Below, piece after piece: positions 7,055 through 28,290 of a DNA stretch of 64,000 nucleotides. Made by a program: the position numbers and the translations under genes. Every line of letters starts with the position of its first letter. The first letter of the stretch is position 1. Below the pieces are notes generated by a model that did no database searches, was not told where the DNA came from, and worked only from the letters and a program-made list of their open reading frames with translations. The DNA comes from Vulcanimicrobiota bacterium (lineage in GTDB: Bacteria; Vulcanimicrobiota; Xenobia; Xenobiales; JADMJV01). Location of the stretch: NCBI GenBank assembly GCA_050250895.1, contig JBFWNU010000005.1, positions 9,235 to 73,234 of the forward strand. The letters run 5' to 3'.

Positions 7055-8428
7055 ATGCAAGCATTATTGAATAAACTAGGTTATTCTCACTTTCGACCCG
7101 GCCAGCGCGAAGCTCTGGCTGCTCTTTACGAAGGGCTCGACGTGTTGGCGGTCATGCCGACGGGAGCGGGCAAGTCCCTGATCTATCAACTTGGCTCCCA
7201 GGCCGTCGAAGGCCTCACCCTGGTGGTCTCGCCCCTGATCTCCTTGATGCAGGATCAGGTGGCGCGTCTGGAAGGGCGTGGATTTGCCGCCACCTATCTC
7301 GCCTCGAGCCTGGGCGCCGACGAGCATCACCAGCGACTGGAGGCGGTCCAAAGAGGACACATCCGTCTGCTGTTCGTGGCTCCAGAAAGGCTGCAGTCGA
7401 TCCCCTTCCGGCGCACACTGGCCAATCACCAGGTAGGCCTGCTAGCGATCGACGAGGCCCATTGCATCTCGCAGTGGGGCCACGACTTTCGCCCCGACTA
7501 TCGGCGCCTGGCCCAGCTCCGCCGCGAGCTGGGCTGCCCCTTGACGGTGGCCATGACGGCCACGGCCACTCCGGATGTTCAGGGCGACATCCTGCGCTGT
7601 CTCGAGATCGAGCAGGCCGTTCGAGTGGTGACCGGCTTTGACCGTCCCAACCTGGCCCTGAAGGTTCTGACCACCCCGGGTGGCGCCTACAAGGACGAGG
7701 TTCTCGCCGGGCTGGTCGCGGCCCATCTGAATCAGGTCATTCTGGTTTACGTCGGGACCCGCGCCGAATCCGAGCGGCTGAGCCTGGAACTGTCCGGCCT
7801 GCGGCCGACGATCTGCTATCACGGTGGCCTGCCCACCAAGGTCCGGACCGAGGCCTTGCAGCGGTTTTCGACCGAGGCCAACCCCCTGGTGGTGGCCACC
7901 AACGCTTTCGGCATGGGCATCGACCGGCCCGACGTGCGCCTGGTGATCCATCATCAGATGCCAGGCACGCTAGAGGCCTACTATCAAGAGGTGGGCCGGG
8001 CCGGACGAGACGGTAAACTGGCCGAGGGCGTCTTGCTGTTCGACCGCGAAGACCGCAAGTTGCACGAGTGGTTCATCAACCGGGCCTTTCCAACCCTCGA
8101 GAAGCTCCACGAGACCCACCTCAAACTGAGTCAGGGTGTCTCGTTTCGGCGCCTCAATCAGGTGGCCGTGGCCCAACTGGAGAAGGCCGGCCTGGTGACC
8201 AGGGTGGGACCAGGTCGATTCGTGACCCAACCCTGGACGCCGCGGCCTCTGGCTCGCCAGCTCGACGCCTCGGCAAACTACCGTCACCATCGCCATCGAC
8301 AACTCGAGAAGATGATCGCATACGCCGACGCCACGGTTTGCAGGCGCGGCCTGATCGTCAATCATTTCGGACAGAACCGGTTCACCGCCAGCAAACCGTG
8401 CTGCGACAACTGTCGGTCGTCGGGGTGA
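7055..8428 (+). CDS. recQ: RecQ-family ATP-dependent DNA helicase (short form, no HRDC)
   Basis: PTGAGKSLIYQL Walker A, DEAHCISQWGHDFRPDY, RQC zinc-binding Cys cluster. GGAGGTG RBS. Confidence 0.85.
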   Translation: MQALLNKLGYSHFRPGQREALAALYEGLDVLAVMPTGAGKSLIYQLGSQAVEGLTLVVSPLISLMQDQVARLEGRGFAATYLASSLGADEHHQRLEAVQRGHIRLLFVAPERLQSIPFRRTLANHQVGLLAIDEAHCISQWGHDFRPDYRRLAQLRRELGCPLTVAMTATATPDVQGDILRCLEIEQAVRVVTGFDRPNLALKVLTTPGGAYKDEVLAGLVAAHLNQVILVYVGTRAESERLSLELSGLRPTICYHGGLPTKVRTEALQRFSTEANPLVVATNAFGMGIDRPDVRLVIHHQMPGTLEAYYQEVGRAGRDGKLAEGVLLFDREDRKLHEWFINRAFPTLEKLHETHLKLSQGVSFRRLNQVAVAQLEKAGLVTRVGPGRFVTQPWTPRPLARQLDASANYRHHRHRQLEKMIAYADATVCRRGLIVNHFGQNRFTASKPCCDNCRSSG

Positions 8429-12323: not shown

Positions 12324-12447
12324 GGTTTTAGCCTGCGCTCTCGAGATGGCCGGGCTGTAGCCGAACTGTTAGCATCCCTTTTCCGCGATCTTACCGTTTG
12401 ATGAACAGCCAACGAACAGAGCAGGGGACCGACCCTGGCGAGCGCAA

Positions 12448-13557
12448 TTGGTGGACATGAGCAGCCAGGACGAGACGACTTGCGTCGAGGGCACCGAGCT
12501 CGAGTTCGTCGACCAGAGTGATCGCAGTTTCGAGGGACAGACGGTGGCCGGCTATCGACTCGAACAGGTGGTGGGACGGGGCGGTTTCGGTCGCGTCTAT
12601 CGCGCTGGTGACCAGCACGGCAAGGTCTGGGCCGCCAAAGAGCTGCTCATGACCTCGGACGAAGCCGACGGCACGGCCCAGTCGCGGGTGCGCCAGACCC
12701 TCGAGCGCGAGCAGAAGATACTCTCCTGGTTGTCTCACGAGGGTATCGTGACGCGCAAAGAAGCCCTCTTCGAGCATGACCGCATCTTCTTGATCATGGA
12801 ATACCTCGAGGGAGCCAATCTGCGCGACCGGTTGGCCGAATCCGAACTCTCGATGCCCCAGGGAGCCGTGCTCGAACTGGGTCTTCAGCTGGCCGAGGTG
12901 TTGGGCTACCTGCACGCCCAGAAGCCCTACCCGATCGTCTTTAGCGACCTCAAGCCGGCCAATCTGATGCTCACCGCCGAGGGAAAGGTAAAGTTGATCG
13001 ATTTCGGGATCGCTCGCCTGGCCACCCCGCGCGAGGAGGGGCTGCCGGCCATGGGCACTCCCGGGTACGCAGCCCCCGAGCAGTACGGCGGCGATTTCGA
13101 CGTGCGCGCCGACATCTATGCCCTGGGGGTGGTCATGCACAACCTGCTGACGCGTCAAGAGCCCCGCCTGCTGAAGCTTCCCCTGCCTCGGGTGGGAGCT
13201 TATGCCACGGCCGTGGACCGTGACCTGGAGGCGGTCATTTCCCGGGCTACCCAGGTCGACCCCGAGCAGCGGTTTTCTTCCGTTCGTCTCATGGCCCGGG
13301 CCCTCGAGGATGTGCTCGAGAAATGGCGACGAAACCGAGCCGAGTTGCGCGGTGAGCTGGTTGCCTGGTCCGGCCTCGAGGCCAGCCGTGCGCGATTGGC
13401 CTCGGCCATTGATGAGAGCGTCAACGAGGTGAATCGTAACCGGGCCGACCGAGCCAAGCCCCTGCTGCCCGACCCCAAGGTCGTACGCCGCTGGCAGTGG
13501 GGTCTGGCTCTGGGCGGAGCCCTGGCGCTGCTGGCCTATGTGATGAGCCAACTTTGA
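12448..13557 (+). CDS. Hanks-type serine/threonine protein kinase with C-terminal TM anchor
   Basis: VGRGGFGRVY, AAKEL, DLKPANLML, DFGIAR, GTPGYAAPE motifs. The antisense ORF 12391..13743 was rejected. Confidence 0.85.
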   Translation: MVDMSSQDETTCVEGTELEFVDQSDRSFEGQTVAGYRLEQVVGRGGFGRVYRAGDQHGKVWAAKELLMTSDEADGTAQSRVRQTLEREQKILSWLSHEGIVTRKEALFEHDRIFLIMEYLEGANLRDRLAESELSMPQGAVLELGLQLAEVLGYLHAQKPYPIVFSDLKPANLMLTAEGKVKLIDFGIARLATPREEGLPAMGTPGYAAPEQYGGDFDVRADIYALGVVMHNLLTRQEPRLLKLPLPRVGAYATAVDRDLEAVISRATQVDPEQRFSSVRLMARALEDVLEKWRRNRAELRGELVAWSGLEASRARLASAIDESVNEVNRNRADRAKPLLPDPKVVRRWQWGLALGGALALLAYVMSQL

Positions 13558-13650
13558 GAGGGGAGCGCTGGCGGACGCACGGCATCCTGTGGCCCGCTTC
13601 GGGGCAGAGGGGAGCGAGGTTCGCGCCCGATCGGTCCCGAAGGGGCGGTC

Positions 13651-15546
13651 ATGCATCCCCTTCAAGTCTTGCACGAACGCTTCACATACAGCCACTTTCG
13701 GGCCGGCCAACTCGAGGTGATCCACTCGTTGCTCGCCGGCCACAGTGCGGCCGCCGTCTTTCCCACGGGGGCCGGCAAGTCGCTGTGCTATCAGCTACCG
13801 GCTTTAATGTGGCCGGGCCTGACGTTGGTAGTCAGTCCGCTCATCGCCTTGATGAAGGACCAGATCGACGCCCTGGTCGCTCGCGGCATCGCCGCTGCGC
13901 GGCTCGATTCGAGCCTGGACCTCGAGCAGTATCGAGAGACGATGCAGGCCGCCGCCGATGGCCGGCTGCGGTTGCTCTATGTGGCCCCCGAGCGTTTCAA
14001 CAACGAGCGTTTTCGGCAGTCGCTAAAGCAGCTCGACATCGAGTTGTTTGCTGTCGACGAGGCCCACTGCGTGTCGGAATGGGGGCACAATTTTCGGCCC
14101 GACTACCTCAAGTTGGCCGGTTACGCTCGGGATTTCCAGGCACGACGCGTGTTGGCCCTGACCGCCACCGCCACTCCCCAGGTGCTCGAAGACATCTGCC
14201 AGTGCTTTTCCATCTCGCCCGAGCATACGGTGCGCACACCGTTTCATCGTCCTAACCTCACCTTGAGGGCTCGGCCGGTCGCCAGCCAGCACCACAAGCA
14301 ACTGGCCCTCATCGAGGGTCTGCGGGGGCGCCCCGAGGGTCCCACCATCGTCTACGTTACCTTGCAGCGCACCGCCGAGTCGGTGGCCGGCTGGCTCGAG
14401 CAGGCCGGTTTCGCGGCTCGGCCTTACCATGCCGGTCTTGACAACGAGGTCCGGGCCGAGACCCAGGAGTGGTTCCTGGCCAGCCCCGACGGCATCGTGG
14501 TGGCTACCATCGCCTTCGGGATGGGCATCGACAAATCAGACATCCGTTACGTGTACCACTATGACCCTCCCAAGAGTCTGGAGAATTACGCCCAGGAAAT
14601 CGGCCGGGCGGGACGTGACGGAGAGCCCTCCACCTGCGAGATGCTCCTCTACGAGCCTGACCGCATTCCCCTCGAGAACTTCGTCTATGGCGACACTCCG
14701 ACCCTCGACGCCATCACCAGCTTATTGGGTGAACTCTTCGGGGGGGCTGACGAATTGGTGCTCAATCTTTACGCCCTCTCGACCCACCATGATATCCGAC
14801 CCCTGGTGCTGCGCACGTTGCTGACCTATCTCGAGTTGGAGGGTTATCTCGAGGGGCTGACGCCGATCTACTCCAGCTATCGCTTCAAGCCGCTGATCAG
14901 CTCGCAAGAGATGCTCGGGCATTTCGAGGGCGAGCGTCGCGAGTTCTTGACGGCTTTGTTTCGCCTGGCCGTACGCAAACGCACCTGGTGCGACATCAGC
15001 ATCGAGACGGCGTGTCAAAGGCTCGAGTGCGGGCGCGACCGAGTGGTGGCGGCCATGGATTATCTGGCCCAGCAGGGGTGGCTCGAACTCAAAGTGGCCG
15101 ATCTGCGCCATCGCTACCGCCTCTTGAGGCGACCCGGACCCGAGCTGGCCAAAACTCTCCACCAGAGGGCCCTGGCTCGGGAACGAGCCGAGCTTGAGCG
15201 TCTCGACCAGGTCATCGCCCTGGCCCGAGCCCAGGAGTGCCGGGTGGCCCTCTTGAGTGCCCACTTCGGCGAGGCGGTCGAGCCGCCTTGCGGCCACTGC
15301 TGCTGGTGTCTGGGCGAGGCGATCCAGGCACCCGACCAGGATCAGACTCGCCCCGCACTCGATCTGGAAGGCTTGCCAGAGGCGCTACGCACTCCACGTG
15401 AGGTGGCCCGCTTTCTGTGCGGAGTCACCTCACCGGCCCTTTCGCGGGCAGGTCTGACCAAGCATCCACGCTTCGGCGAGGCGGCCGGGGTGTCTTTTGG
15501 TCACATCCTGGCCAGCTTTCAGGAGACTTTCACGCCGACCGTCTAA
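13651..15546 (+). CDS. RecQ-family DNA helicase paralog with extended C-terminal domain
   Basis: PTGAGKSLCYQL, DEAHCVSEWGHNFRPDY, C-terminal CGHCCWC zinc motif. Confidence 0.85.
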   Translation: MHPLQVLHERFTYSHFRAGQLEVIHSLLAGHSAAAVFPTGAGKSLCYQLPALMWPGLTLVVSPLIALMKDQIDALVARGIAAARLDSSLDLEQYRETMQAAADGRLRLLYVAPERFNNERFRQSLKQLDIELFAVDEAHCVSEWGHNFRPDYLKLAGYARDFQARRVLALTATATPQVLEDICQCFSISPEHTVRTPFHRPNLTLRARPVASQHHKQLALIEGLRGRPEGPTIVYVTLQRTAESVAGWLEQAGFAARPYHAGLDNEVRAETQEWFLASPDGIVVATIAFGMGIDKSDIRYVYHYDPPKSLENYAQEIGRAGRDGEPSTCEMLLYEPDRIPLENFVYGDTPTLDAITSLLGELFGGADELVLNLYALSTHHDIRPLVLRTLLTYLELEGYLEGLTPIYSSYRFKPLISSQEMLGHFEGERREFLTALFRLAVRKRTWCDISIETACQRLECGRDRVVAAMDYLAQQGWLELKVADLRHRYRLLRRPGPELAKTLHQRALARERAELERLDQVIALARAQECRVALLSAHFGEAVEPPCGHCCWCLGEAIQAPDQDQTRPALDLEGLPEALRTPREVARFLCGVTSPALSRAGLTKHPRFGEAAGVSFGHILASFQETFTPTV

Positions 15547-15556
15547 GCTATCCGCC

Positions 15557-17140
15557 ATGGATGTCTTTTTGCGCGGGCTCGAGCGGCGGGCTTTCGAAGG
15601 CTATGGCGACACCTCGTATTGGTCGCGCGAGGCCAAGGAACTGGCCGTCGAGGCGGCCGCCTTCGCGGCCCGCAAGACCGCCGAGCTGAGGGCCGACGAG
15701 GTTTACACGCCGGCACAGGCTGAGGATGCCCTGACCCAACTGAGGGCCGAGGAATCGCGCTTCAAAGGCACCGCTCACCGCCTGGCCTTTGATGGCTATG
15801 GCGACACCTCTTATTGGTCGCGCCGCACCAAGGAGCTGGCTCTGGCCACGGCGGCCCACTGCTGCTTGACGGCCAGCCTTTGTGATGGACCGATGCTGGC
15901 CGCCCTCGGATCGACCCTCGACACCAGCCTGGCACGATCCCACGACACGGCCTTCAACGGCCACGGTGACGTGAGTTATTGGAGCCAGCGGGCCAAGCGG
16001 CTGGCTGGCGAACAAGCTCCCGAGTTGCCTGCCGAGCTAGCCGGCCTTACCCGGGGACAGGCCACCCCCACCAGCCAGGTGGTCGAGCTCAATCGCGACT
16101 TGCTCGAGGGATTGACCCGCGAGACCTTCGGACCCACTGGCGACACGGGCTTCTGGTCGCGCCAGACTAAGGAGCTCGCCTTTCGCTCGGCCGCTCACGC
16201 CGCCCAGCTCGGCATGTTGGCGGCGGCCAAGAAGAGCCACTCGTCAACCCGGCGAACGCAAGCCGTCGAGCAGTTTGCCCAGCTGGCCCAGGAGCGAGGT
16301 CAGGCGCTCCAAGATAAGGCCTGGTCAAGCACCGGAGACACCTCGCACTGGTCCAAGCGCTCCAAGCATCTGGCTCTGGACGTGGCCTGCGCGGTCAACG
16401 AACTGGTGGAGAGCTGCGACGGGTCGATGGCCGAAACGGTCAGGCCGCTGCTCGAGTCGACCCTGACCGAGGCCCGCGAGGTGGCCTTCGATGGGCACGG
16501 CGATGTGCGTTACTGGAGTCAGCGAGCCAAGCGCATGGCGGCACTTTCCCGCACCGCCCTGGAAGAAGCGGCGGTCGAAGTGCGAGCCCGCCAGGCCGCC
16601 ACTCCCCGCGGCTATCTCGAGGCCTCGGTGGCGGGATTGACCCAGCTGTCTTCGGTTCGCCAGGCGGAAAAGCAAGGCATTCAAGGTCAGCTTGACGACC
16701 TCGGCCGGGTGGCCGCCGCCAATCAACCCCGCCGCGCCCAGCTGGTCAAACGCCACGAGCTACTGCGCAAAGTGGGCATGGGTGGCGCCCTGGCGACGGT
16801 GATCGGGTTTGGTTGTCAGTCGATTTCCCCCTGGTTCTTGGGGCTGGCCGGTGTGGGGGCCGTGGCCGCCGTGGGCAGCGTGCTGGGGCTTTCCTCCATC
16901 AAGTCCGAGCTGGCCAACCTGGCGGTGGGAAAAGGCGACAAAGACCTGCTCGAGCGCCGGCGCCAACTCGTCGACCTCGAACTCGGTCGCCTCGACCGTC
17001 GTCTTGAGGAGCAGAATCAGGCTCTCTCGGTGCATCAGTTGGCCGACGCCCTGACCGCCCCGGCCGGCCCGACCAAACTCGAGTTTGGCGATGAAGAGAT
17101 CCTGATCGGTGACATCGCCGTGGAACGCAACCTGGGTTAA
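15557..17140 (+). CDS. Novel repeat protein: six ~30-aa repeats with core (F/W)xG(Y/H/T)GDTSYWSxxxKELA, then TM segment and coiled coil
   Basis: Start at the ATG after the RecQ paralog stop. Repeats visible in the translation: AFEGYGDTSYWSREAKELA, AFDGYGDTSYWSRRTKELA, AFNGHGDVSYWSQRAKRLA, GPTGDTGFWSRQTKELA, STGDTSHWSKRSKHLA, GHGDVRYWSQRAKRMA. Confidence 0.6.
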   Translation: MDVFLRGLERRAFEGYGDTSYWSREAKELAVEAAAFAARKTAELRADEVYTPAQAEDALTQLRAEESRFKGTAHRLAFDGYGDTSYWSRRTKELALATAAHCCLTASLCDGPMLAALGSTLDTSLARSHDTAFNGHGDVSYWSQRAKRLAGEQAPELPAELAGLTRGQATPTSQVVELNRDLLEGLTRETFGPTGDTGFWSRQTKELAFRSAAHAAQLGMLAAAKKSHSSTRRTQAVEQFAQLAQERGQALQDKAWSSTGDTSHWSKRSKHLALDVACAVNELVESCDGSMAETVRPLLESTLTEAREVAFDGHGDVRYWSQRAKRMAALSRTALEEAAVEVRARQAATPRGYLEASVAGLTQLSSVRQAEKQGIQGQLDDLGRVAAANQPRRAQLVKRHELLRKVGMGGALATVIGFGCQSISPWFLGLAGVGAVAAVGSVLGLSSIKSELANLAVGKGDKDLLERRRQLVDLELGRLDRRLEEQNQALSVHQLADALTAPAGPTKLEFGDEEILIGDIAVERNLG

Positions 17141-17214: not shown

Positions 17215-17802
17215 ATGACTTTGATCAGCGTTCAACCGCGGCGATTTAGTCGCGAAGAGTATCACCGAATGGGTGAGGCCGGGCTTTTTCGGGGGGAAAG
17301 GGTCGAACTGATCAAAGGGGCAGTGGTGGCGATGAGCCCCCACGATCCGCTCCATGCCGGCGCCGTGGAGAACGCCTCCACGGTCTTGAATCGGCTTTTA
17401 GGGAGCGCCTATGTCGTGAGAGTGCAATTGCCGATGGTGGCTCCCGACGACTCCGAACCCGAACCCGATTTGCTTTTATTGACTCACGAGCAAGCTCGTC
17501 AGTTCAGGCGAGAACGCCGTCATCCGGATGGGGCCGTGCTGGTGGTCGAGGTGTCCAGGACCTCGCTAGACTACGACCGTCTCGAGAAATCCAGTCTCTA
17601 TGCCGAAACCGGCGTGGCCGAGTTTTGGATTATCAACCTCGTCGACATGGTGGTCGAGACCAGTCGCCAGCCCGCGCGTGACCCCGCAGCCCGACTGGGC
17701 TGGTGCTATCGCGAGACGGCGGTCCTGGGGCCCGACGAGGTCCTCTCGTTCGACGGTGTGTCGATTCCCGTGGGGGGGCTGTTCGCCGACCTCAACGCTT
17801 AG
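17215..17802 (+). CDS. Uma2-family (DUF820) PD-(D/E)xK putative endonuclease
   Basis: FSREEYHRMGEAGLF...ELIKG...MSP...EPDLLL...VVEV...AETGVAEFWIINL matches the Uma2/DUF820 pattern. Confidence 0.75.
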   Translation: MTLISVQPRRFSREEYHRMGEAGLFRGERVELIKGAVVAMSPHDPLHAGAVENASTVLNRLLGSAYVVRVQLPMVAPDDSEPEPDLLLLTHEQARQFRRERRHPDGAVLVVEVSRTSLDYDRLEKSSLYAETGVAEFWIINLVDMVVETSRQPARDPAARLGWCYRETAVLGPDEVLSFDGVSIPVGGLFADLNA

Positions 17803-25828: not shown

Positions 25829-26275
25829 CTAGCCCAAGAGTCCGGCCCAGGCGGGGCCGCTGTTGCCGACCATCGAGCGAGCCTGATTGAAGCCCGCGCC
25901 GCTGAGCCCGTTGCCTTGCAGCAGATCGTTGAGGCCTGGCAACATTCCGCCCAGTATCTGCATCTGCACGTCGTTCTGGCCGTTCATTCCAGTGGCCATG
26001 CCGACGGCGAGGTCATAGTCTCTTTGGCGAGCATCACGAAGCTCGGTCATCATCTGGATCTGCTCTTCCTGAGCCTTCCTGGCCGCTTCGATCGCTTCGG
26101 GGTCGGCGTTGACGCCACCCCAGGCCTCGGCCAGGGTGGTCAACAAGTTCACCAGTTGGCCAACCGACTCGACCAGAGCACCGATGTCGTTGCCCGAGCC
26201 CGGGGCCGCGTTGGTAGCGGCTCTGGGGGCGGCAGCGGCGGTGCGAGTGGTGGGTTGGTTGGCCTGGACTTTCAT
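25829..26275 (-). CDS. Hypothetical protein (Ala/Gly/Gln-rich helical)
   Basis: GGAGAG RBS 6-7 nt upstream; operon partner of 25281..25793. Confidence 0.5.
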   Translation of the reverse strand: MKVQANQPTTRTAAAAPRAATNAAPGSGNDIGALVESVGQLVNLLTTLAEAWGGVNADPEAIEAARKAQEEQIQMMTELRDARQRDYDLAVGMATGMNGQNDVQMQILGGMLPGLNDLLQGNGLSGAGFNQARSMVGNSGPAWAGLLG

Positions 26276-26421
26276 CGTTCGCTCTCCTCGTGAGTTCTTG
26301 ATACAAGCTTACGAAGAGCGAATAAACCCCCACTAAACCACCTCAGAATCAGGTTAACAGGATGTAAATTTATCCTCTTGATGGGTTCGAACCGTGGGCT
26401 GTGACCCTTTCCTGACGGAAG

Positions 26422-27264
26422 ATGGAGGAACTGGAGTTGGATAGAAGAACGTCTTACAGGGTCATGCCCTTTCCGAGTTCGGAACGTGTCATATATGAAC
26501 GCAACCCTCTGAAAGAGGTCATTTGCGATCTCCAGTTTCCGGCGATTCTTGAGATTTCGAGTTCGAACCCAGTGGCGTTTCAGAAGGTGGTTCGGAAAGC
26601 TTATCCGCTCTTTTCTAAAGGCACCTCGGTCCATCAGGTCAACGCTCCGCCGGAGATTCCGCCCCATGTCATTCAACTCTTTCTCAGCCAGGTGGGAGAA
26701 GCTGGGCCGCCTACCTTCACGTTTAAGACAGCGGATGAAAACAGAGCTATTGTGATGTCCCAGAGCAACCTGGTTCTTCATGAGAAGGACTACAAGGAAT
26801 GGACTGAGTTCAAAGCAAATTTTTCCGACGTCGAAAAGACCTTCCGAAAGGTATACGAGCCGCCCTTCTATACTAGAATTGGCCTCCGCTACGTCAACGT
26901 CATCGACCGTGACGCTCTCGACCTAGGAGATTCCTCATGGAGCGAGATTCTAAAAACCAGGCTCTTGGGTCTTCTCGGAGGTATAAATGGAGTAGAGGTT
27001 ACCGAGACCAAAACGGAGGCACTGCTCAACTTGAATGTGACCAGCGTGAAGGGTGCTCAAGCTTATGTTCGCCACGGGCTTGTCCGGGAGCAAAGTAGCG
27101 GTCGCCCCCTCTATGTCTTGGATATAGATCTATTTACCGACGAAAGGAGTAAGCCGACAGATGTCCCCAAACGACTTGATGTTTTTTCCAGAGAAGCAGG
27201 CAACTTCTTCCGGCATGTTACGAGAGGCAAGCTTCACGAGGCTCTTGGACCGCGCTCCGGTTGA
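26422..27264 (+). CDS. Uncharacterised protein in low-GC island; N-terminal motif YERNPLKEVICDLQFP resembles the sporadically distributed TIGR04255 family (recollection, unverified)
   Basis: 280-aa ORF in a ~50% GC segment (flanks ~65%). Preceded by a 146-nt AT-richer intergenic region. Confidence 0.55.
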   Translation: MEELELDRRTSYRVMPFPSSERVIYERNPLKEVICDLQFPAILEISSSNPVAFQKVVRKAYPLFSKGTSVHQVNAPPEIPPHVIQLFLSQVGEAGPPTFTFKTADENRAIVMSQSNLVLHEKDYKEWTEFKANFSDVEKTFRKVYEPPFYTRIGLRYVNVIDRDALDLGDSSWSEILKTRLLGLLGGINGVEVTETKTEALLNLNVTSVKGAQAYVRHGLVREQSSGRPLYVLDIDLFTDERSKPTDVPKRLDVFSREAGNFFRHVTRGKLHEALGPRSG

Positions 27265-27616
27265 GAGGAGCGGACATGTCTTGCGGCGAGTCGACCTCTT
27301 GGCGAATCTGTTGATTCGACTCGCGAATGTGCCGCTGGAGCAGTTGATCAACGTTTGCTCCATCGTTGGGGAGCATACAGGCGAACCTCATTCCCCCAGT
27401 ATTTTGAGAGTAGTTCCGAGCGAGACCCTTCTGCCACGAACTCTCTCGGGCCAACCCTCGCGAGGTGCGTCTCGCCCTGAGCCACCTCTCGATGACTTTA
27501 CCCTGCCTGAGATTCACTCGAGGCCTGAGCAACTCGAGGCCGTACTGAATTTCATCGCCACTCAACCTTCGACGACCGTTTCATCTTTGTCCGACCTCTT
27601 CGAGGAAGAGGACTAG
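27161..27616 (+). CDS. Hypothetical acidic protein (C-terminus DLFEEED)
   Basis: AAAGGAG RBS 10 nt upstream of the ATG. Overlaps the upstream gene by ~100 nt in another frame. Same low-GC island. Confidence 0.4.
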   Translation: MSPNDLMFFPEKQATSSGMLREASFTRLLDRAPVERSGHVLRRVDLLANLLIRLANVPLEQLINVCSIVGEHTGEPHSPSILRVVPSETLLPRTLSGQPSRGASRPEPPLDDFTLPEIHSRPEQLEAVLNFIATQPSTTVSSLSDLFEEED

Positions 27617-27621
27617 TTGGG

Positions 27622-28290
27622 ATGTATAGCCGAGTCCTCGACGCTCAGCTAAGACAAGGCGACATTCTCGGCAATGTATACTATCCGAAGCTAGACTATT
27701 CGAAGGCCAAATTCCTAGGCTCACTTAATACCTTCCAGTCTCCCCTGGCGTTCGAACCCCAGAAGAACGGCAGCTCGCTCGTGGCTCAGCTTACTTTTTC
27801 TGAGGCTTTCTGTGTAGTCCTTAGTCAATGTTGCGACCTCGCGATCCGTGACGGGGAGCCGTGCAAGACAGATTTTATCGTATGCTGTGTTCTTCGAGAA
27901 TACAGCAGAGGGCACCAAGAGAAGGACCCTGCTCGCTTTAAGCAGGTGAGGCTGAATCCATTATCGGACTTCGGCTCTAGCTACTTTTTTGCGCGAAAGA
28001 AGCCGCTACTATCCCATTTCGTCGCTGAGCTGTCAAATACGTTCTCTGTGCCTAAGAAGTCGTATCCTGATTTGGCCGCGAGAAAGATCTTGCAGTTGAC
28101 GGACGCTGAGCGAGTGCATTTTAAGAAGAAGGTCGCTAGCTTCTTCGGAAGGGCGACCGATGAGGAGACGACTGCGAAGCTTTGGACCGAAGCTTCGGGC
28201 GCCAAGTGTGCAGCGGAAACGAAATCGGGTGTGCGCTGTTCACGCACGCCGATGCCAGGATTGCGCTTCTGCAGGCAACATCAGCCGTAA
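27622..28290 (+). CDS. Hypothetical Cys-rich protein (CC...CC cluster and C-terminal C/H zinc-ribbon-like tail)
   Basis: 222-aa ORF in the low-GC island; convergent with pilC. Confidence 0.5.
   Translation: MYSRVLDAQLRQGDILGNVYYPKLDYSKAKFLGSLNTFQSPLAFEPQKNGSSLVAQLTFSEAFCVVLSQCCDLAIRDGEPCKTDFIVCCVLREYSRGHQEKDPARFKQVRLNPLSDFGSSYFFARKKPLLSHFVAELSNTFSVPKKSYPDLAARKILQLTDAERVHFKKKVASFFGRATDEETTAKLWTEASGAKCAAETKSGVRCSRTPMPGLRFCRQHQP

Follow-up and report, generated by a model that had tools for sequence, protein, structure and literature searches.

A rare Vulcanimicrobiota protein with an undescribed alpha-helical repeat, a putative membrane hairpin and a shared C-terminal tail

What kind of protein is encoded directly behind the second of two RecQ-like helicase genes in a 64,000-nucleotide (nt) stretch of Vulcanimicrobiota DNA (contig JBFWNU010000005.1, positions 9,235 to 73,234; this whole stretch is called the window below)? 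A preliminary description of this DNA, made from the letters alone, had singled out an open reading frame (ORF) at 15557-17140 on the forward strand, which it took for a novel repeat protein, perhaps co-transcribed with the helicase gene. We find that this gene encodes a real, very rare and undescribed protein of three modules, namely a repeat domain, a hairpin module and a C-terminal tail. The description that fits it best is a fusion in which a new alpha-helical 'GxGDxxYW' bundle repeat is joined to a membrane hairpin module and a short C-terminal tail that other proteins also carry. Its features are listed here in window coordinates (aa, amino acids), with the kind of evidence in brackets.

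15557..17140, forward strand: complete gene, 527 aa plus stop (ORF and translation; identical to NCBI AB7S38_17300)
15557..16096, forward strand: repeat module A, helical bundle with motifs 1-3, aa 1-180 (self-BLASTP, AlphaFold2)
15590..15646, forward strand: repeat core 1, aa 12-30, AFEGYGDTSYWSREAKELA (motif scan)
15785..15841, forward strand: repeat core 2, aa 77-95, AFDGYGDTSYWSRRTKELA (motif scan)
15950..16006, forward strand: repeat core 3, aa 132-150, AFNGHGDVSYWSQRAKRLA (motif scan)
16097..16600, forward strand: repeat module B, helical bundle with motifs 4-6, aa 181-348 (self-BLASTP, AlphaFold2)
16124..16180, forward strand: repeat core 4, aa 190-208, TFGPTGDTGFWSRQTKELA (motif scan)
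16319..16375, forward strand: repeat core 5, aa 255-273, AWSSTGDTSHWSKRSKHLA (motif scan)
16484..16540, forward strand: repeat core 6, aa 310-328, AFDGHGDVRYWSQRAKRMA, which with its flanking helices matches the Pfam model PF18318 locally
16604..16771, forward strand: long helix before the hairpin, aa 350-405, with the basic cluster KRHELLRK at its end (AlphaFold2 helix 350-419, flank charges)
16772..16900, forward strand: uncharged Gly/Ala-rich hydrophobic hairpin, aa 406-448, VGMGGALATVIGFGCQSISPWFLGLAGVGAVAAVGSVLGLSSI (Kyte-Doolittle, charge count, AlphaFold2)
16931..17056, forward strand: long helix behind the hairpin, aa 459-500, with LSVHQLA(D)A at its end (AlphaFold2, alignment, hhalign)
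17063..17137, forward strand: Pro/Gly linker and C-terminal beta-tail, aa 503-527, PAGPTKLEFGDEEILIGDIAVERNLG (AlphaFold2, tail hidden Markov model)

The ORF runs from ATG 15557 to TAA 17138-17140 in a window with a G+C content of ~63%, and the choice of start codon is backed by the N-termini of homologs. The translation is identical to the NCBI entry 'MAG: hypothetical protein AB7S38_17300 [Vulcanimicrobiota bacterium]', so that the window belongs to a metagenome-assembled genome (MAG) of the Vulcanimicrobiota (Eremiobacterota). That the six-repeat ORF is a genuine one is borne out by the repeats themselves: the strict motif GD..[YFH]WS stands at aa 17, 82, 137, 195, 260 and 315, six copies where 20,000 shuffles gave a mean of 0.00035, and the same six repeats recur in the same order in homologs as distant as 29% identity.

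In its fuller form the motif reads G-x-G-D-x-x-[YFH]-W-S-x-R-x-K-x-L-A, and successive copies are spaced by 65, 55, 58, 65 and 55 aa. The earlier count of six was right; the unit length of ~30 residues given with it holds for the conserved block only (~20-30 aa), the period being 55-65 aa. The preliminary description also lacked a higher order of organization, since a module of three motifs and ~180 aa has been duplicated in tandem to give the six, with 39% identity between aa 1-180 and aa 181-360 (E=1e-32, self-BLASTP). The DNA of the motif cores is only 64-77% identical between repeats, which indicates that the repeats are old and have been maintained at the protein level by selection. A family logo built on 149 units from 43 repeat-bearing relatives reads G(84%)-x-G(99%)-D(77%)-x-x-Y(82%)-W(100%)-[SM]-x-R(60%)-[AT]-K(50%)-x-[LIFM]-A, and the modal spacings across the family are 54-55 and 64-65 aa. 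As a definition of the family we propose at least two copies of G-x-G-D-x-x-[YF]-W-[SM]-x-R-x-K-x-[LIFM]-A, spaced by 54-65 aa, in an all-helical domain; with its six copies, the protein of the window is a 'GxGDxxYW' helical-bundle repeat protein in this sense.

Confident AlphaFold2 models were obtained for the full-length protein (predicted local distance difference test score, pLDDT, 83.9; predicted template modelling score, pTM, 0.77) and for the N-terminal domain (pLDDT 92.2, pTM 0.90), the latter very confident and entirely helical. The helices of module A span aa 3-13, 19-44, 52-78, 84-108, 111-133 and 139-151, and those of module B aa 173-191, 197-223, 230-256, 262-285, 289-311 and 317-348. 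Each motif comprises an inter-helix loop of 4-5 residues (G-x-G-D; aa 14-18, 79-83, 134-138, 192-196, 257-261 and 312-316) together with the first turns of the next helix (Y-W-S-x-R-x-K-x-L-A). These motif loops alternate with non-motif loops along the domain, so that, given an up-down bundle, all three motif turns in a module should, on topology alone, come to lie at the same pole. The aromatic and basic cap that they would form there (F/Y/W plus R/K) could be a binding surface or merely a turn stabiliser. The models thus agree with the all-helical, Ala-rich architecture with aromatic turns that had been read from the letters, and in their light the suggestion that the N-terminal repeats serve as a scaffold or binding module is a reasonable one.

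The non-motif turns have a signature of their own. At one such turn of each bundle most full-length relatives carry a conserved Cys-Asp ('L-C-D-G-P-M' / 'x-C-D-x-x-M'), missing from a secreted four-repeat subfamily, and a His-Cys-Cys precedes the first of these. The positions concerned here are aa 102-103, 109 and 287 (nt ~15860-15885 and ~16415-16420), and they could make up a redox or metal site.

The repeat matches no described family, as the preliminary description had supposed: searches of Pfam, NCBIfam, PADLOC, PHROGs, PDB sequences and fold libraries returned nothing at threshold. PADLOC and PHROGs gave no match for the protein; the PDB sequence search gave none, whether started from the protein itself or from profiles of the repeat unit and of repeat 6; and Foldseek found no significant fold match for its models in the PDB and viral BFVD libraries. 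A variant of the Sel1 or TPR repeats would have made the protein an ordinary one, and in Pfam no TPR, Sel1 or other repeat model matched at E<=10. It shares with these repeats the tandem helix-turn-helix units, whose Ala-rich helices make up a solenoid or bundle scaffold; however, its period is 55-65 aa and not 34-40, its conserved core is the turn G-x-G-D-x-x-Y-W and not the small/large residue pattern of TPR, and its units form two three-motif bundles instead of a superhelix. TPR proteins are encoded nearby in the window.

Two uncharacterised families come closest to the turn itself. The NCBIfam model NF058615 (cyano_YWSERL, a 42-aa protein) reaches 19.8 of the required 50 bits, over aa 124-145, and matches one of 23 isolated repeat units (E=0.13); no mention of YWSERL was found in the literature. 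Pfam DUF6074 (PF19551) matches nine of the 43 family members (best E=9e-4; best score 19.8 bits, cut-off 27.2) and gives no match on the protein itself. Both likenesses are centred on the G-D-x-x-Y-W-S-x-R element, and proteins of either family probably contain such a turn once. Among known folds, the nearest to the N-terminal domain are the talin and vinculin rods, tandem up-down helical bundles that act as interaction platforms; Foldseek places it closest to talin R11R12 (E=0.19) and talin R10 (E=2.1, TMt 0.49, root-mean-square deviation (rmsd) 4.4 Å over 154 columns), neither match being significant. The rods are eukaryotic cytoskeletal proteins, however, with no sequence likeness to the repeat and without its conserved turn motif.

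Behind the repeats, the preliminary description had noted hydrophobic segments and a coiled coil. The hydrophobicity is present (Kyte-Doolittle peak 2.06), not in several segments but in a single uncharged stretch of 43 aa, which has a central Ser-Pro and a helix break at aa 420-425 in the AlphaFold2 model and forms a helical hairpin. The coiled coil corresponds to a pair of long helices, aa 350-419 and 459-500, that the model places on either side of the hairpin and whose heptad regularity is only moderate; at the LSVHQLA(D)A end of the second, the family consensus is L-D-V-x-R-M-A. Across 24 family members the hairpin is uncharged, usually 40-47 aa long and mostly has a central Pro, and K+R stand against D+E at 88/34 in the 15 aa before it and at 77/46 after it. 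By the positive-inside rule, basic flanks on both sides predict an N-in/C-in hairpin with a minimal periplasmic loop. Since the protein also has no N-terminal signal peptide, the repeat bundles and the tail would both be cytoplasmic, and we infer that the hairpin inserts in the cytoplasmic membrane with both ends inside. A C-module profile (long helix, hairpin, long helix and tail) returned only generic coiled-coil noise from the PDB. The layout recalls orbivirus NS3, an adaptor with a long helix or coiled coil, a two-transmembrane hairpin and a cytoplasmic C-terminal segment that binds a partner; of the architectural analogues it has the highest Foldseek probability (BFVD, prob 0.99, TMt 0.41), without reaching significance (E=0.18). 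The likeness is one of layout only, NS3 being a eukaryotic-virus protein with no sequence likeness to the C-module.

The family is very small. A word-indexed search found five proteins in 5.8 billion, and an exhaustive profile search, run over 1.84 billion representatives, yielded 52 relatives at E<=1e-3, 21 of them at E<=1e-10. They fall into three classes: full-length relatives of 480-620 aa, with motifs partly degenerate in P0017, P0019 and P0022; repeat-only proteins of 100-370 aa, including a four-repeat subfamily of ~280 aa, mostly with clear Sec signal peptides, along with a lipoprotein-like protein of 682 aa; and proteins of ~200 aa that consist of the C-module only. The repeat domain, the hairpin module and the tail are each found separately in other proteins, a modularity that the preliminary description had missed, as it had the sharing of the tail with unrelated proteins. 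Relatives that bear a name are called 'hypothetical protein' or are evidently mis-annotated ('threonine/serine exporter', 'EnvC'). Members come from Eremiobacterota, Armatimonadota, Candidatus Ozemobacter and unbinned metagenomes; the Armatimonadetes MAG VGFD01 holds at least one full-length member and one C-module-only paralog, and two further paralogs, which carry Armatimonadetes FJX76 gene names, probably belong to that genome too. No more relatives came from word-indexed homology searches that started from the C-module and secreted-repeat alignments. Scans for sequence patterns in GTDB genomes and in contigs of JGI metagenomes returned the Armatimonadetes relative only; the broader alignment A3 was too divergent for patterns. 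The family is absent from the phages, plasmids and viral contigs of PHROGs, IMG/VR, INPHARED and PLSDB.

Some individual members call for comment. The start of P0003 was called too far downstream, and the in-frame upstream sequence MRVDSHQHLNRLERRAFDGYGGTEYWSRRAKEMA restores its repeat 1 (L001 7900-8001). In JGI sample 3300056388, from which P0005 also comes, the 17,296-nt contig of P0019 carries two unannotated genes (614 and 622 aa) upstream on the same strand, which may be tandem paralogs. The idea that stand-alone C-module genes are halves of split genes was dropped, the genes upstream of them not being repeat proteins; one of these has a tail-like end.

The third module, the tail, gives the most informative result. 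In the AlphaFold2 model the tail has strands at aa 508-510, 514-517 and 520-523, and its consensus of ~20 aa, V-x-V-[DE]-x-x-x-V-x-I-G-G-[VIL]-x-V-P-[RK]-[RK], follows the 'RMA' helix end and a Pro-rich linker. A hidden Markov model (HMM) of the tail, trained only on family members, was scanned against 2,209 ORFs; it recognised the protein of the window at E=1.6e-7, this protein being itself in the training set, and matched the extreme C-termini of a 617-aa protein (E=0.0018) and a 495-aa protein (E=0.0029), with a weak match to a 348-aa protein (E=3.3). Three Armatimonadetes-lineage proteins that are otherwise unrelated to the family thus end in this element of ~20-40 aa, the third weakly. 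The 495-aa protein, Ala-rich and encoded by the convergent neighbour of the C-module gene P0027, ends '...MADALQPKPADAPKPPAAEVKVEEGAIVVGGIRIAKRP...', the beta-rich 617-aa protein ends '...RIVDGETQVIIGGVTVPKRV' and the PD40-like 348-aa protein ends '...RREEFVIANGVKVPVRKEGNQ'. By hhalign, the likeness of the tail-bearing proteins to the family is confined to their last 20-40 residues. The 495-aa protein aligned at E=3.9e-5, with a 'MADA' helix end and the Pro linker included, the 617-aa protein at E=0.006 and 4.5e-4, and the 348-aa protein at E=0.16. All three are without relatives in Pfam, NCBIfam or PDB sequences and without signal peptides, and by inspection none of the tail-bearing proteins that were looked at begins with one. 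No CTERM-type sorting model of NCBIfam matched the protein of the window at E<=10 or nine other tail-bearing proteins at E<=1.

One relative, P0004, appears to have lost the tail; this is due to a frameshift near its 3' end, present in two independent assemblies, and a 32-aa ORF downstream of it (L012 1785-2006; L013), considered as a conserved small gene, is its frameshifted tail. The gene of the 348-aa protein is translationally coupled to the C-module gene P0047, the stop of one and the start of the other sharing base 2039 (L015 993-2707; also L016 and L017), which suggests a two-protein unit with both partners tail-bearing. Another C-module gene, P0060, lies 56 nt downstream of a gene for a 452-aa papain-like-looking Cys protease (QGAQGTCTATT...H) and ~500 nt upstream of an Ntox30-domain gene, a locus that may be an effector island (surroundings read from L009 953-4582 and L010 398-4059).

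How might the three modules work together? Our preferred account, which we hold tentatively, is that the protein is a modular, membrane-anchored cytoplasmic scaffold or adaptor that docks through its tail, a function we infer from its parts. The Gly-rich hairpin would anchor the protein in the cytoplasmic membrane and the paired long helices would form a stalk; the two helical bundles would display the conserved aromatic/basic turn caps, either as an interaction surface or as mere structural caps; and the 'RMA' end, linker and beta-tail would dock the protein to a partner or assembly common to the other tail-bearing proteins. In this way a platform of helical bundles would be held at the membrane and connected to a shared assembly. 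Several points weigh against this account. The topology is drawn from the positive-inside rule and the absent signal peptide; the first arm of the hairpin is only moderately hydrophobic and Gly-rich, as in secreted membrane-inserting effectors; and the many stand-alone repeat proteins with Sec signals imply that the repeat domain often works outside the cytoplasm. The model of the tail is of low confidence (pLDDT 54-65), the tails of Eremiobacterota (…EFGDEEILIGDIAVERNLG) are without the terminal V-P-R-K, the other tail-bearing architectures were seen in one Armatimonadetes lineage only, and no second tail-bearing ORF was found in the 64-kb window or in 17.5 kb of L001. The activity and the partner of such a scaffold are putative.

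The tail invites a wider and more doubtful hypothesis. The 'RMA' end, linker and beta-tail may be an unrecognised sorting or docking signal in Armatimonadota and Eremiobacterota, which would deliver structurally unrelated proteins (helical-bundle repeat, hairpin membrane and beta-propeller-like proteins) to a dedicated machinery or membrane assembly, the GxGDxxYW bundle being a new binding fold and one cargo or adaptor domain among these. Short shared termini have led to sorting systems before, as with sortase/LPXTG, exosortase/PEP-CTERM, the T9SS C-terminal domain and the encapsulin cargo peptides. Like PEP-CTERM signals and encapsulin cargo peptides, the tail is short and conserved and follows a flexible Pro/Gly linker on unrelated proteins of one genome; unlike PEP-CTERM-type signals, it is an amphipathic beta element with a basic end and not a transmembrane helix. 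No cognate exosortase or encapsulin shell was identified, with no genome-wide search made for either. Its 'V-x-I-G-G-L-K' resembles encapsulin cargo peptides, and a membrane hairpin would be unexpected in an encapsulin cargo protein. If the tail is a tag, it could directly identify a new localisation or assembly machinery in phyla, the Eremiobacterota (Vulcanimicrobiota) and Armatimonadota, that are barely cultivated and whose cell biology is almost unknown. The tag hypothesis is the part of the finding most worth pursuit. If it is no tag, there remains a well-delimited orphan family, of value mainly to structural genomics and Pfam curation, with a new alpha-helical repeat whose predicted structure is confident and which has no significant PDB sequence or fold match.

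Other explanations have to be set against the scaffold account. The main one, which we consider unlikely, is a secreted membrane-inserting effector or alpha-helical pore-former, whose hairpin would be shielded in the soluble state and enter a target membrane, with the tail as the export signal of a dedicated non-Sec secretion system. The top PDB matches of the full model in Foldseek are the ClyA-family toxins AhlB (prob 0.95), MakA and SmhB, alpha-pore-forming proteins with which it has a long helical stalk and a hydrophobic helical hairpin in common, and the Gly/Ala composition of the hairpin, with its moderately hydrophobic first arm, is in keeping with this. So are the absence of Sec signals from tail-bearing proteins, including beta-propeller-like ones that would normally be expected to be exported, the position of P0060 between a papain-like-looking protein and an Ntox30 toxin-domain protein, and the patchy distribution with several paralogs per genome. 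However, the toxin fold matches are not significant (E>=0.16, TM 0.2-0.3, rmsd ~25 Å), so that the significant structural similarity expected of a ClyA-family member is missing, and there is no sequence likeness. The basic flanks of the hairpin are family-wide, as in a resident N-in/C-in membrane protein; there are no partner toxin genes, no secretion-system genes recur beside family members in the contexts read, and no NCBIfam or Pfam toxin model matches. Improbable, to a clearly greater degree, is an envelope-stress or membrane-maintenance anchor like PspM or PspC, whose hairpin would recruit soluble partners to the stressed membrane. Two C-module proteins do match PspM_Rv2743c (NF047839) over the hairpin below threshold (E=4e-4 and 1e-3), there is a weaker match to PspC, and PspM is a two-transmembrane membrane protein (PMC11237479). 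Yet their scores are ~20 bits where the cut-off is 80, the protein of the window has no such match, similarity between Gly/Ala-rich transmembrane segments is prone to be compositional, no PspA/IM30 gene, as expected from the actinobacterial clgR-pspA-pspM-pspN operon, was seen in any context read, and PspM is confined to mycobacteria and corynebacteria (PMC11237479).

Two more accounts have very little in their favour. The less probable of them takes the repeats for homologs of the C-terminal domain of type III glutamine synthetase (GS-III) and has the protein bind or regulate GS-III itself or some related partner in nitrogen metabolism. It arises from Pfam PF18318 (Gln-synt_C-ter), which scores 21.4 bits on aa 295-330, just under its gathering threshold of 22.7, and matches six of the 43 family members, falling on repeat 6 and its flanking helices in the three that were inspected; P0003 lies above the threshold (29.2 bits) and P0004 scores 14.7 bits. 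The likeness covers at most positions 1-53 of the 118-position model, however; isolated 38-aa repeat units gave no match to it, and the repeat-unit and repeat-6 profiles found no PDB chain named glutamine synthetase even at E<=10. Unlike GS-III, the protein has no match to the catalytic domain in Pfam, and none of the gene contexts read showed a GS gene; a paper on GS-III held no functional detail on this C-terminal domain. We take the resemblance for a local and possibly real likeness of one helix-turn-helix, not for membership of the domain family. Slightly less remote, and still highly improbable, is a partnership with the upstream RecQ-like helicase in a two-gene DNA-repair or anti-phage module. 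The ATG lies 10 nt (11 in the preliminary description) after the TAA of the RecQ-like gene at 13651-15546 (+), with no Shine-Dalgarno sequence in the spacer. Close to the 3' end of the RecQ-like ORF, within its final ~80 nt and 50-75 nt ahead of the stop, there is a terminator-like hairpin, but the scan gave two such sites where 2.8 were expected by chance. The shared strand and the short spacer make co-transcription plausible in this genome. The helicase also scores high on DpdF (469 bits) and PsyrT (337 bits) in PADLOC, and a Uma2-family putative restriction endonuclease at 17215-17802 (+), 75 nt downstream of the gene, matches PADLOC PDC-S03 (E=1e-14). Yet the DpdF and PsyrT scores are what any RecQ-like helicase core would give and probably reflect this generic similarity, the protein itself has no PADLOC match, and the functional link to RecQ finds no support elsewhere: at the five other loci that allow the gene upstream to be read (P0003, P0005, P0006, P0009 and P0019), no helicase stands beside the gene, and the RecQ adjacency is peculiar to this genome. 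The neighbours at the homolog loci are as follows.

P0003 locus: SLH-domain protein (divergent)
P0004 locus: unassignable short genes (upstream neighbour cut at the contig end)
P0005 locus: small ORFs and an Asp/Arg hydroxylase
P0006 locus: metallophosphoesterase (upstream) and a 270-aa membrane protein (downstream)
P0009 locus: Rieske protein
P0019 locus: unannotated ~620-aa gene and hemerythrin

No neighbour recurs across these six loci, which, together with the absence of relatives from phages, plasmids and viral contigs, makes a RecQ-linked or defence function unlikely; the gene is a stand-alone one and not a RecQ accessory.

The surroundings in the window offer some observations of their own. 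No tRNA gene and no Rfam family at the gathering threshold was found in the whole 64 kb. The two RecQ-like helicases are encoded 5 kb apart, at 7055-8428 (+) and 13651-15546 (+); additional sequence (~80 aa and ~180 aa) separates Helicase_C from the RecQ Zn-binding domain in both proteins, and RQC and HRDC gave no match in either. An ORF of 450 aa on the opposite strand, 12391-13743 (-), is without a Pfam or PADLOC match and overlaps the start of the second RecQ-like gene by 93 nt; its start, or its reality as a gene, is uncertain. Further downstream, the G+C content drops to 0.535 at 26001-28000, against ~0.63 elsewhere, around an ORF (26422-27264, 280 aa) without a Pfam match, and this segment may have been acquired horizontally.

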